Shown here: positions 10,293-13,212 of the stretch, in pieces
Position numbering within the stretch: the stretch's first letter is position 1
How the letters are laid out: the number at the start of each line of letters is the position of its first letter
DNA from: an uncultured Candidatus Actinomarina sp.
GTDB lineage: Bacteria; Actinomycetota; Acidimicrobiia; Actinomarinales; Actinomarinaceae
NCBI GenBank assembly: GCA_902635945.1
Contig: CACPPU010000001.1
Location: forward strand, 35,098-99,097
Length of the DNA: 64,000 bases
Direction: 5' to 3'
Notes under the pieces: generated by a model
Databases searched by the model: none
Told to the model about the DNA's origin: nothing
Seen by the model: the letters and a program-made list of their open reading frames with translations, nothing else
Program-made: the position numbers and the translations under genes

Positions 10293-11486
10293 CTATTTAA
10301 TTAAATTTAATAGATCCCATATACAGTTATTTACTGCTCTATTTATTATATCTTCCCTATTACCGCGTAAATTGTGTGTGAAATTAGTTGTTTCACCATT
10401 GATACATATAGATATAAATATTTCACCGATTTTATATTTACTTGAAGGAACCGGACCTGCTTCACCTAATACTGCTAAACCGACTGAAGAATTATATTTT
10501 TTCATAGACGCAACTGCTAACTCTTCTGTGAGTAGGGCCCAGTCTTCATTAGGTTCTGCATTCAATAGTTCTTTTTTTGAATCCATAGAATACAAGACAT
10601 TGGATGCGATTAACGTTTCACTTGCACCAGGATGAGACACAATCTCTTTAGAAAATGATCCCCCCGTAATGCTCTCTACTAGCGAAATTGTATAGTTATT
10701 AGCTTTTAATTCTCTTAATAAAATTTTCGATGCAGGGATATTTTCATAACTTAATATATTGTCACTTAATGTTTCTTTAATTTGATTTTTAAATTTATTT
10801 AACGCATCATCAGTGACCGAATTTTTATCGATTCGTAATTTAATTATTCCCTTACTCGCTAAATAAGCTAAATCTAAACCTTCAGGTTTGAACTTATCAA
10901 TCTTTTCTGCCAAAGCAGATTCTGCTTCATTAAAAAACAAAATAAATTCATAATCTTTTTCAACTTTTGTAAAGTTATCTTTTAAAAATGGTACTAATTC
11001 ATCTGTTACTAGCGGGATGAATTCTCTCGGTGGACCAGGAAGTATAAATACATGTTTACTTTTCAATTCAATATAAATCCCTGGTGAAGTTCCGTTTGTG
11101 TTGTTTAATTTGGTTGCACCTGCTGGGATTTCTGCTTGTTTTATATTTGTTGCAGGCATAGTCATGCCTCTACTCTCCCACCTTGACTTCATCCAGTTCA
11201 AATGATCTTCGTCAACAACAAGTTTTAAGTCAAACATTTCAGAAATGACTTCTTTGGTAAAATCATCTTCTGTAGGTCCGATTCCTCCACATGTAATAAT
11301 GACATCATTATTCTCAAGTAATTCATTTACAGCATCTTGTATTAATTTTTTATCATCAGGTACAGTTTTTTCTGTTGAGAGAATAAATCCATTGTTATAT
11401 AAAGCTTGCCCAAGTGATGCAAGGTTAGTATTAACAGTATCGCCAAGTAAAATCTCTGTTCCAACGCTTAAAAGTGCAATATTCAC
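10293..11486 (-). CDS. cinA: competence/damage-inducible protein CinA (COG1058 domain + PncC-like domain)
   Basis: VGTEILLG..VNTN, GGIGPTEDDFT, LPGPPRE, VESITGG; upstream of recA. Confidence 0.93.
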   Translation of the reverse strand: MNIALLSVGTEILLGDTVNTNLASLGQALYNNGFILSTEKTVPDDKKLIQDAVNELLENNDVIITCGGIGPTEDDFTKEVISEMFDLKLVVDEDHLNWMKSRWESRGMTMPATNIKQAEIPAGATKLNNTNGTSPGIYIELKSKHVFILPGPPREFIPLVTDELVPFLKDNFTKVEKDYEFILFFNEAESALAEKIDKFKPEGLDLAYLASKGIIKLRIDKNSVTDDALNKFKNQIKETLSDNILSYENIPASKILLRELKANNYTISLVESITGGSFSKEIVSHPGASETLIASNVLYSMDSKKELLNAEPNEDWALLTEELAVASMKKYNSSVGLAVLGEAGPVPSSKYKIGEIFISICINGETTNFTHNLRGNREDIINRAVNNCIWDLLNLIK

Positions 11487-11533
11487 ATATTTAGGATAGC
11501 AAGGTTATTCACCAATAATATTATCATTAAGTT

Positions 11534-12016
11534 ATGAAACGTTTCTTACCAATATTTATCATATTTTTTATTTCCTGTTCCTATGGAGCCAGTGAAGAAT
11601 TGGAGAGTGAAATACTAGAAGCTGTGGCAGAAACTACAGGTTCTATTACAGAAAGTACTTTTCAGTATATAAATACATCTGAAGCTGTTGTCACTGAGAA
11701 TTTTACAGATAAAAAAACAATCATTATTTTCTGGGCTGATTACTGAGGCGTATGTAGACGGGAGTTACCTGTCGTAGAAAAAGAATTAGCTTACATTTCT
11801 GATGAGTATGATGTTATTGCATTAGCACACAGTCAGTACGAACCAACTATGGAATGGGTGAATGAAAATCTTAATGGGAATCTCACAATAGGGTTTTCTA
11901 CTCCTGAGTTAAGAGATTATTTTAAGATTGTTGGTCAACCAATTTCTATAGTGCTTGATACCAACGGTGAGATAATTTCTCGTACATATGGAGAAATTGA
12001 TTTAACAAATTTTTAA
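11534..12016 (+). CDS. TlpA/ResA-like thioredoxin-fold lipoprotein, probable selenoprotein (UxxC), 160 aa
   Basis: In-frame TGA 11744-11746 in IIFWADY-U-GVCRRELP; the frame stays open for 89 more codons (...FKIVGQPISIVLDTNGEII...) to TAA 12014-12016; lipoprotein signal MKRFLPIFIIFFISC. Confidence 0.88.
11757..11773 (+). promoter_or_regulatory. putative bacterial SECIS hairpin
   Basis: GACGGG-AGTTA-CCTGTC stem-loop (one G.U pair) starting 11 nt after the UGA, with G in the apical loop. Confidence 0.65.
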
Positions 12017-12078
12017 CTTAAAACGATACCCTTTAGTCTGAAACAAGTATGATGAGCTTATAAGCTAGCGGAGGAAGA

Positions 12079-13212
12079 ATGACTAAAAAATCATTTATAC
12101 TTCTACTTGTTTTATCTTTGGCTTTTGCTGCCTGCGGTGGTGCTGAAGAAGAAACTGTAGAAGAACCTGCAGTTGTTGAAGAGGCTGAAACTCTAGACGC
12201 ACCAGCTACTACTGTTGCAGAAACACTAGATAAAATAACTTTCGGCTTTATTCCAAGTGCAGAACAAGCTGATCTTCAAGACAATATCAAGCCATTAATG
12301 AAAGTTTTAACTGATGGTCTTGGAATTGAAGTTGAAGGATTTGTAACTAGTGACTTTTCAGGATTATTAGTTGCGATGGGATCTGGTCAAGCAGACATTG
12401 GAGCATTCAACACATTAGGTTATGTTAATGCATTAAATGTATTCCCAACAAGAATTGAAGCAATTGCAAAAGTTGTAAGATATGGATCTGGTTCATACCA
12501 TGCTAATTTCTGGACAACTGATGCAAGTGTTTGTGACTCACCACCTGTAATTGGAGCATTTGAGAATATTGATGGTGTTCCACAACTAATTTTAGGATCT
12601 GAAACAGAATCTCCTGATGTGAAAGCATTACAAGTTGGTTGGACCTTTGGTGATGATGGAAAGATTCCAGAAGTAAGAAATATTGATGGTGTTGACGTAA
12701 CAGTCAGCCCAGGATATGCATGTGAAGCTGATTTAAATGTACTAAGAGGTGAAAAAGTATTATTTGTTGAAGAAGGTTCAACATCTGGATACCTATATCC
12801 TTCTTTACAGCTAAAAAATATGGGAATTGATTATCAAAATGATATTACCCAAGTTTTTGCTGGTTCACATGATGGAGTTATTTCAGGTCTGTATAACGGT
12901 GATGCTAAGTTTGGTGTTACTTATGACGATGCAAGAAGAACTTTAAGAAAAACCAATCCTGATGTTGGTGAAAAAGTTATAGCTATCGGTATTTCAGCTG
13001 AAATTCCAAATGACGTTGTTGCTGTAAGAAGCGATCTTCCAGAAGATATAAAATCTCAAATATATCAAATTTTGTCTGATTACATGGCTACCGAAGAAGG
13101 TGCTGCTGTAATGGATGAAATTTATGGTTGGACAGATGTTGTTCCTGCAGACAATTCTGAATTTGATGTAGTTAAACAAGCTGCTGAAGAATTCGGTCTT
13201 TACGACGAATAA
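12079..13212 (+). CDS. phnD: phosphate/phosphite/phosphonate ABC transporter substrate-binding lipoprotein
   Basis: Lipobox FAAC, FGFIPS, STSGYLYP, AGSHD, IPND; SD GGAGG. Confidence 0.93.
   Translation: MTKKSFILLLVLSLAFAACGGAEEETVEEPAVVEEAETLDAPATTVAETLDKITFGFIPSAEQADLQDNIKPLMKVLTDGLGIEVEGFVTSDFSGLLVAMGSGQADIGAFNTLGYVNALNVFPTRIEAIAKVVRYGSGSYHANFWTTDASVCDSPPVIGAFENIDGVPQLILGSETESPDVKALQVGWTFGDDGKIPEVRNIDGVDVTVSPGYACEADLNVLRGEKVLFVEEGSTSGYLYPSLQLKNMGIDYQNDITQVFAGSHDGVISGLYNGDAKFGVTYDDARRTLRKTNPDVGEKVIAIGISAEIPNDVVAVRSDLPEDIKSQIYQILSDYMATEEGAAVMDEIYGWTDVVPADNSEFDVVKQAAEEFGLYDE

Follow-up and report, generated by a model that had tools for sequence, protein, structure and literature searches.

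Closest Described Systems

Exported thioredoxin-like proteins of the TlpA/ResA/CcmG family typically carry a W-C-x-x-C active site followed by x-x-E-x-P, together with a cis-Pro loop, and this arrangement was also visible in our alignments of the gene described here. The gene is located at positions 11534-12016 on the plus strand of a 64,000-nucleotide stretch of DNA (the window) from an uncultured Candidatus Actinomarina sp. (assembly GCA_902635945.1, contig CACPPU010000001.1). We consider it highly probable that Candidatus Actinomarina possesses here a working selenoprotein gene, which encodes an exported, lipid-anchored thiol-disulfide reductase of the TlpA/ResA/CcmG type, with selenocysteine (Sec) at residue 71 as its nucleophile. 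When compared with ResA, TlpA, CcmG (DsbE) and StoA (structures 1st9, 1jfu, 2b1k and 3erw), the predicted protein shares the thioredoxin fold with its N-terminal beta-hairpin and central insert, an active site at the start of helix 1, the x-x-E-x-P sequence and the cis-Pro loop, and a CcdA-type shuttle is likewise present in the genome. These proteins are exported and anchored, as is also read for the Sec protein from its predicted signal. It differs from them in having Sec for the first Cys and in a similarity which falls far below curated cut-offs; furthermore its gene is unlinked to cytochrome c or sporulation genes, and the genome holds a separate Cys-type CcmG-like gene.

In pneumococci, the Etrx proteins receive electrons from CcdA and pass them to a surface methionine sulfoxide reductase (the Etrx-MsrAB2-CcdA system). 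The surface-exposed Etrx1 and Etrx2 of Streptococcus pneumoniae (4hqs, 2yp6, 4hqz) were the best Foldseek matches to the Actinomarina protein (E 3.5e-9, TM 0.73 on target) and are likewise lipoproteins of a single-membrane bacterium, although identity was only 18-21% and Cys stands where the Actinomarina protein would have Sec. The NCBIfam family NF041054 (ResA-like WAxxUGC) has the same W-A-x-x-U-G around its Sec, here W-A-D-Y-U-G, but the 160-residue protein scored only 21.1 bits against a cut-off of 300, over model positions 100-195 of 354, and is not a member.

Marine U-x-x-C thioredoxin-fold selenoproteins have been catalogued since 2008, and in these catalogues the families are defined by motif and domain rather than by organism or export signal. 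Table 2 of PMC2398784 contains Trx-like 1-3 and Prx-like 1-3, of which Prx-like 3 has a weak pfam08534 match and was commoner in marine samples, and two further entries of this known kind appear in PMC13188914. The catalogued families resemble the Actinomarina protein in their U-x-x-C thioredoxin fold, their occurrence in surface-ocean bacteria and their many Cys homologues.

Reading Frame and Conservation of the TGA

Translation with table 11 gave an open reading frame (ORF) of 70 codons, starting at ATG 11534 and ending at TGA 11744-11746, and the same frame was open for 89 codons more, up to TAA 12014-12016, as the original prediction had described. The whole gene therefore comprises 160 codons, one of them for Sec, followed by TAA; the TGA is the only one in frame, and the extent of the gene is supported by the frame itself, a match to Pfam Redoxin and full-length in-frame orthologues. 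Translation around the TGA reads ...KKTIIIFWADY-TGA-GVCRRELP... and continues through ...IVGQPISIVLDTNGEI..., both in agreement with the earlier translation. The TGA occupies the position of the first Cys of W-C-x-x-C in TlpA/ResA-type thioredoxin-like proteins, a Cys is aligned with it in solved homologues, and the conservation of this column supports its reading as Sec at residue 71, the first position of U-G-V-C. The TGT at 11753-11755 encodes the putative resolving Cys74 of U-x-x-C, which is invariant and aligns with the second CxxC Cys of solved TlpA/ResA-type proteins.

Besides the source genome, 31 of 36 further genomes in the genus yielded an orthologue (99-47% identity), each with exactly one TGA inside; the five genomes in which no orthologue matched are 60-87% complete. 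Two of the orthologous matches (G019 and G012) are not represented among the fetched loci; all 30 loci which were fetched from the genus encode FWADY-U-x-x-C with the TGA in the same column. A collection of species-representative genomes produced 56 orthologous loci, nearly all from Ca. Actinomarina, Actinomarinales or the OCS155 cluster, and TGA was present in 55 of them, down to 43% identity. The single locus without it (L114) was also the most distant (38% identity) and lies in a different gene neighbourhood; it has TGC at this position (FWADY-C-PTC), and the hairpin described below is absent from it. The original prediction had asked whether relatives would show a conserved TGA or alternation between TGA and Cys. 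Judged from these alignments, TGA in the orthologues together with Cys in L114 amounts to the exchange of Sec and Cys that a genuine selenoprotein should show.

Across the 80 codons 3' of the TGA no stop was found in any of 53 distinct sequences (pooled from the 30 and the 55 loci, whose genomes overlap), and variable sites at codon positions 1, 2 and 3 numbered 59, 30 and 77, respectively. In a 22-orthologue alignment, drawn from the 30 loci after L020, L023, L025, L036, L037, L039, L041 and L042 were left out as near-duplicates, the residues invariant after the TGA were C74, R75, E77, L78, P79, A96-S100, G134, Q135 and P136. The absence of stops, the codon-position pattern and these invariant residues together indicate that selection acts on the protein encoded by the downstream part. 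In three studies, RNA libraries also gave contigs that span the TGA, with 11744-11746 unchanged; as assembled contigs they speak to occurrence of the allele and not to transcription, its level or the 5' end, and one run (X10) had no coverage of the TGA.

Thioredoxin-like matches at about 24-32% identity, with one internal TGA each, were also observed in other genera of the class (G055, G042, G051, G037, G047, G059, G056 and G048), and Sec-containing TlpA-like proteins may accordingly be spread more widely in the class.

SECIS-Like Hairpin

In Escherichia coli, a 17-nt upper stem-loop located 11 nt from the UGA is sufficient as a selenocysteine insertion sequence (SECIS). A hairpin of this size and at this distance is present in the Actinomarina gene at 11757-11773, exactly where it had been placed in the original prediction, and the support for it comes from comparison and not from fold energy. 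It consists of a 6-bp stem, GACGGG (11757-11762) paired with CCUGUC (11768-11773), closing a pentaloop AGUUA (11763-11767), and begins 11 nt 3' of the UGA. Like the fdhF-type SECIS of E. coli it is found inside the coding sequence directly 3' of the UGA and has G and U in the apical loop; it differs in sequence, in having an AGUUR pentaloop on a 6-bp stem with no bulged U visible, and in that the SelB of Actinomarina is divergent.

The hairpin was present in both the minimum free energy and the centroid folds, and was the only structure predicted by RNAalifold on the alignment of 30 loci. Standard pairs occupied 138 of 138 cells, while controls in which the 3' partners were slid by 1-3 columns gave 49-70%. 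Changes on both sides were seen in two of the six pairs: pair 25-37 was C-G in 19 sequences and G-C in 11, and pair 26-36 was A-U, G-U or G-C. All 53 distinct sequences were fully paired, with 13 hairpin variants among them, and the loop was always AGUUA or AGUUG. Codons which make up the stem are rare in the genome (CGG 1.0% of Arg, GAG 22.9% of Glu, GTC 9.3% of Val and CTC 4.6% of Leu), a usage which argues for selection acting on the RNA in addition to the protein. There are 64 AGUUR-loop hairpins with a stem of at least 5 bp in the genome, and four of these follow an in-frame TGA with an open frame on both sides: the one described here, those of a SelW-like gene and a membrane thioredoxin-like gene (both below), and one on the minus strand of contig C1.

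Predicted Fold, Export Signal and Candidate Promoter

With the TGA entered as Cys, the protein matched Pfam Redoxin at 27.5 bits (cut-off 26.6) and, below threshold, AhpC-TSA, Thioredoxin_8 and Thioredoxin. A profile of the 22 orthologues matched solved ResA, StoA, TlpA and DsbE-like thioredoxins, in alignments which span both the active site and the G-x-P loop. The AlphaFold2 model had a mean pLDDT of 80.8, with residues 41-150 at 87-97 and most of the domain above 90, and Foldseek returned matches at a probability of 1.00 to Etrx1/2, ResA, Mycobacterium tuberculosis DsbF, CcmG and TlpA (TM 0.53-0.74 on target), and at the same probability to StoA; the TlpA matches include mixed-disulfide complexes with ScoI and cytochrome oxidase subunit II. 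The TlpA-like oxidoreductase fold assigned in the original prediction is thus borne out by profile, model and structural comparison. The active site reads W-A-D-Y-U-G-V-C-R-R-E-L-P, with Sec in place of the first Cys, and the predicted cis-Pro loop is formed by G134-Q135-P136 (11933-11941), which does not vary among the 22 orthologues, lines up with the G-x-P of solved homologues and precedes model strand 137-141.

The N-terminus, MKRFLPIFIIFFIS-C (11534-11578), has the form of a lipoprotein-type signal peptide, with a K/R-rich start, a hydrophobic stretch and a Cys at residue 15 (codon 11576-11578) which is invariant in all 22 aligned orthologues. Lgt (94.5 bits) and LspA (91.8 bits) are both encoded in the source genome. 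These findings are consistent with the lipoprotein signal proposed earlier, and the pre-protein is probably lipidated on Cys15 and held at the outer face of the cytoplasmic membrane. In one clade residue -1 is Phe, which is atypical for a lipobox; the same S-F-C-S occurs in the paralogue linked to the cytochrome c maturation (ccm) genes, and the lineage may tolerate Phe at this position.

A leaderless promoter had also been proposed. The candidate -10 box TATCAT (11522-11527) ends 6 nt 5' of the ATG, and among 43 distinct upstream sequences a TANNNT hexamer ended exactly 6 nt before the ATG in 41, with a Shine-Dalgarno-like tetramer in only four. A generic sigma-70 promoter scan found nothing above chance at the proposed promoter; the conserved hexamer is consistent with a leaderless start. 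A 47-nt gap (within window positions 11484-11533) separates the gene from a divergent cinA-like gene on the minus strand (GTG start at 11486), and on that strand TATCCT is found 6 nt before the GTG. This arrangement would fit two back-to-back leaderless promoters.

Sec Machinery and Other Selenoprotein Genes

The source assembly (1.05 Mb in 17 contigs, approximately 32% G+C) is rated 76% complete. SelA (431 aa, 326 bits) is encoded in it, directly followed by a SelB-like GTPase of 559 aa whose C-terminal SelB-wing_3 domain, the SECIS-binding wing, scored 38.8 bits (cut-off 23.2); taken as a whole, the SelB remained below the TIGR00475 cut-off (173 vs 242 bits). The selD gene at C2:103304-104332 (locus L010; 374 bits) has its own in-frame TGA, in the active site GSG-U-ACK. 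With selA, selB and selD present in a Ca. Actinomarina genome of about 1 Mb, the original view of a streamlined actinobacterium which keeps Sec machinery is upheld. According to a 2026 preprint, each of the 84 complete genomes of Actinomarina has selC, selA and selD together with a divergent selB (10.64898/2026.04.03.716425).

Five selenoprotein genes were found in the genome, encoding SelD, a SelW-like protein, an AhpD-like protein, a membrane thioredoxin-like protein and the exported TlpA-like lipoprotein, all of which are small redox proteins. This number agrees with the approximately five predicted selenoproteins per Actinomarina genome given in the preprint (10.64898/2026.04.03.716425). 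Two scans for selenoprotein genes were abandoned, one by codon-usage log-odds, which was too noisy in that antisense frames scored like genes, and one with a loose overlap filter, which returned 337 candidates that were mostly junk. A stricter filter returned 11 candidates, of which three were credible, and missed selD and the SelW-like gene, both found by other routes.

The four companion genes each have a hairpin 3' of the Sec codon. In selD, whose reading frame is closed by two consecutive TGA codons, this is CUCUCC-CAA-GGAGAG, approximately 10 nt 3' of the UGA. The Rdx/SelW-like gene (C2:73737-73973; L142:238-474) encodes 78 residues beginning MEIKLEFCVV-U-NYTPRA..., with a C-x-x-U motif and a Pfam Rdx match of 58.7 bits, and its hairpin, a 6-bp stem with AGUUG in the loop, begins 11 nt past the Sec codon. 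The commonest selenoprotein family of the preprint is likewise of 78 aa and is called uncharacterised (10.64898/2026.04.03.716425); by length alone, the SelW-like gene may belong to it. The membrane-anchored thioredoxin-like gene (C9:18461-18934; L058:262-735) has the active site FYSDY-U-LGC. Its TGA was kept in every one of 35 matches from 41 genomes of the genus, and 20 nt beyond the UGA lies the hairpin AAUUCAU-AGUUR-AUGAAUU, whose conservation extends to synonymous sites. The AhpD-like gene (C1:240440-241000; L057:241-801) encodes a 'peroxidase-related enzyme' with C-E-Y-U and matched TIGR01926 at 135.5 bits and CMD at 34.2 bits; its hairpin, UCUCC-GGUC-GGAGA, is of a different kind and lies approximately 20 nt after the UGA.

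Weight of the Evidence and Alternative Explanations

Several observations count against a functional Sec-containing reductase of this type. The NCBIfam cut-offs are far from reached (ResA 32.6 of 170 bits, StoA 31.4 of 210, TlpA 27.1 of 230 and DsbE 22.9 of 123), and from these scores the protein is best described as a distant member of the superfamily and not an equivalog of any named enzyme. The hairpin has a short stem of 6 bp, and its single-sequence fold energy is ordinary (z = -0.38; 66 of 200 shuffles folded at least as well). It overlaps the codons of invariant E77, L78 and P79, so that its conservation is in part a protein constraint, and the changes on both sides of the stem coincide with amino-acid changes (RR..V vs RE..L) and probably derive from very few events among related sequences. 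No Rfam family was found for it, a scan of 11400-12100 giving only a chance miRNA match (E 7.6). Lastly, tRNA-Sec was not found in the 76%-complete assembly by ARAGORN, and the best RF01852 matches were tRNA-Ser and tRNA-Leu, below cut-off.

The search for Sec machinery called for by the original prediction was successful for selA, selB and selD and, as regards tRNA-Sec, in relatives only. A tRNA-Sec with anticodon UCA (72-76 bits) was found in all five of the most contiguous and in four of the five closest relatives of the same genus (9/10). When the 3-kb surroundings of tRNA-Sec from these nine relatives were searched against the source assembly by blastn, no match was obtained, while a control locus was matched at 95.6%; this suggests that the region is unassembled, and the tRNA-Sec gene probably lies in the missing 24% of the source genome. 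According to the preprint, selC is located inside a hypervariable region in 32 of the 84 complete genomes (10.64898/2026.04.03.716425), a position which would explain its loss from draft assemblies.

The alternative which survives best accepts a genuine selenoprotein and places it in the role of ResA or CcmG, keeping the haem-binding cysteines of apocytochrome c reduced during maturation. The best structural and profile matches include ResA and CcmG, ResA is also the best (sub-cut-off) NCBIfam match, and the genome does mature c-type cytochromes with a ccm system: a ccmBCEFH-like System I cluster with a TPR protein was found at C4:22510-27458 (locus L119). That cluster, however, ends in a Cys-type thioredoxin-like lipoprotein with the active site WASWCLEC, at the usual place of CcmG, and this protein is probably the CcmG that fills the cytochrome c maturation role. 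The Sec gene adjoins no ccm gene; in 5/5 Actinomarina loci checked it is found between recA-cinA and phnD, of a phosphonate-type ABC transporter. We therefore regard a ResA/CcmG role as unlikely, and the presence of a separate ccm-linked CcmG-like lipoprotein makes it more likely that the Sec enzyme serves the repair or protection of surface proteins.

Considerably less probable is that the UGA is read as a standard residue, either as Trp through a code-4-like reassignment or as Trp or Cys through near-cognate suppression aided by the hairpin. Public gene calls do give W at this position, but, in line with the original rejection of code 4, the only tRNA-Trp of the genome has anticodon CCA, all 2130 Trp codons in long frames are TGG, and, of 757 open frames that reach 200 codons, 160 end in TGA; TGA is an ordinary stop elsewhere in the genome. 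In-frame TGA was found only in the five selenoprotein genes, each time at a site equivalent to a redox Cys (U-x-x-C, C-x-x-U or the SelD active site), and the Sec pathway is retained in full despite a genome size of 1 Mb, its tRNA-Sec being seen in relatives. Moreover, the sole non-TGA homologue has Cys and not Trp, and by established thioredoxin chemistry a CxxC enzyme would be inactivated if its attacking Cys were replaced by Trp. We give practically no credence to a TGA arising from nonsense mutation, pseudogene formation or sequencing error, with only a 70-residue piece or nothing made, since the end of the table 11 ORF at 11746 and the tRNA-Sec not found in this assembly are outweighed by the recurrence of the TGA in 55/56 loci from independent single-cell and metagenome assemblies and in RNA-library contigs of three studies, by 80 open downstream codons which evolve like coding sequence, and by a thioredoxin fold which needs both halves.

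Proposed Mechanism and Clients

For the proposed exported Sec reductase we envisage the following course. To judge from the anatomy of the gene and from its relatives, the UGA at 11744-11746 would be read as Sec, with SelB and Sec-tRNA(Sec) recruited by the 17-nt hairpin, and the resulting 160-residue pre-protein would be exported by means of its lipoprotein signal peptide. Sec71 would act as an exposed nucleophile which attacks a disulfide or other oxidised group in an extracytoplasmic client, a selenenylsulfide would then form between Sec71 and Cys74, and the oxidised enzyme would be re-reduced by a membrane shuttle, probably CcdA, a homologue of which is encoded in the genome (48.9 bits).

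A membrane-anchored WCGYC thioredoxin-like protein was also observed, its gene overlapping a DsbB-like gene (CKFCWYQR) at C1:314683-316500 (locus L120) and adjoined by a rhodopsin-like gene. Beside this protein and the ccm-linked one, the Sec enzyme would be a third, separate extracytoplasmic thioredoxin-like protein.

With respect to clients, one lead is the methionine sulfoxide reductase MsrA, for which the Etrx-MsrAB2-CcdA system of pneumococci is a precedent. In relatives (G001 L143:1051-1719; G019 L144:1441-2043, minus strand; G007 L147:571-1173) MsrA begins with a signal of the lipoprotein type, such as MKTVKVLLLLLFVS-C, and oxidised methionine may accordingly be repaired outside the cytoplasm. 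The enzyme was detected in 15 of 21 genomes of the genus, and was found neither in the source genome nor in a single-contig genome which has the Sec gene; with this distribution it cannot be the sole client. MsrB was considered as a surface client and rejected: it is present in 21/21 genomes, but its frames of 124-138 residues are too short to include a signal peptide in addition to the 116-position domain. Sco was likewise rejected as a partner, the only match being below threshold (20.2 vs 22.8 bits).

We offer, tentatively, a broader scenario which is possible rather than likely. In one of the smallest free-living cells, the Sec enzyme would be the hub of a surface repair pathway running from CcdA through the Sec thioredoxin-like protein to clients such as the lipoprotein MsrA; Sec would have been kept because a surface thiol would be over-oxidised in sunlit, oxic sea water; and AGUUR would be a lineage-specific minimal SECIS read by the divergent SelB.

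Annotation and Significance

Public protein collections contained hundreds of near-full-length copies of the protein (372 matches), and the largest cluster among the matches listed has 1095 member sequences. The Sec position was W in each of 12 sequences, of 146-160 residues, fetched of 120 listed matches (P0001-P0120), which implies that many environmental copies keep the TGA. Metagenome gene callers had evidently chosen a TGA=Trp table on short AT-rich contigs. The expectation that annotation pipelines would truncate the gene was thus correct for table 11, which cuts the product at residue 70, and incomplete in that many metagenome calls read through the TGA as Trp. For those who rely on public copies this is an annotation trap, since these are either cut at residue 70 or carry a false Trp at the catalytic position.

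A search of the literature for Actinomarina or Actinomarinales together with selenocysteine or selenoprotein found only the preprint 10.64898/2026.04.03.716425. Sec use by the genus is therefore already reported and the selenoprotein is to that extent not hidden, as it had first been described. The main text of the preprint does not contain the words thioredoxin, TlpA, redoxin, disulfide, lipoprotein, AhpD, SelW or hairpin; in that text this protein does not appear, and the supplement may list it. Marine U-x-x-C thioredoxin-fold selenoproteins and the use of Sec by Actinomarina were thus known before. To these the present analysis makes modest additions: what this protein is and where it probably resides, the AGUUR hairpin common to several genes, an identification of the four further selenoproteins and the mis-annotation as Trp. 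A search of Rfam for SECIS elements is reported to have failed in the preprint (10.64898/2026.04.03.716425), and the hairpin offers a concrete SECIS candidate where Rfam models gave none, both here and in that study.

Few surface-ocean bacteria are as abundant or as streamlined as Candidatus Actinomarina, which maintains four Sec-pathway genes in approximately 1 Mb. If the proposed surface role is true, two of the five selenoproteins of this genome would act outside the cytoplasm. Naming the targets of the Sec pathway makes the question of its cost and benefit to such an organism testable.

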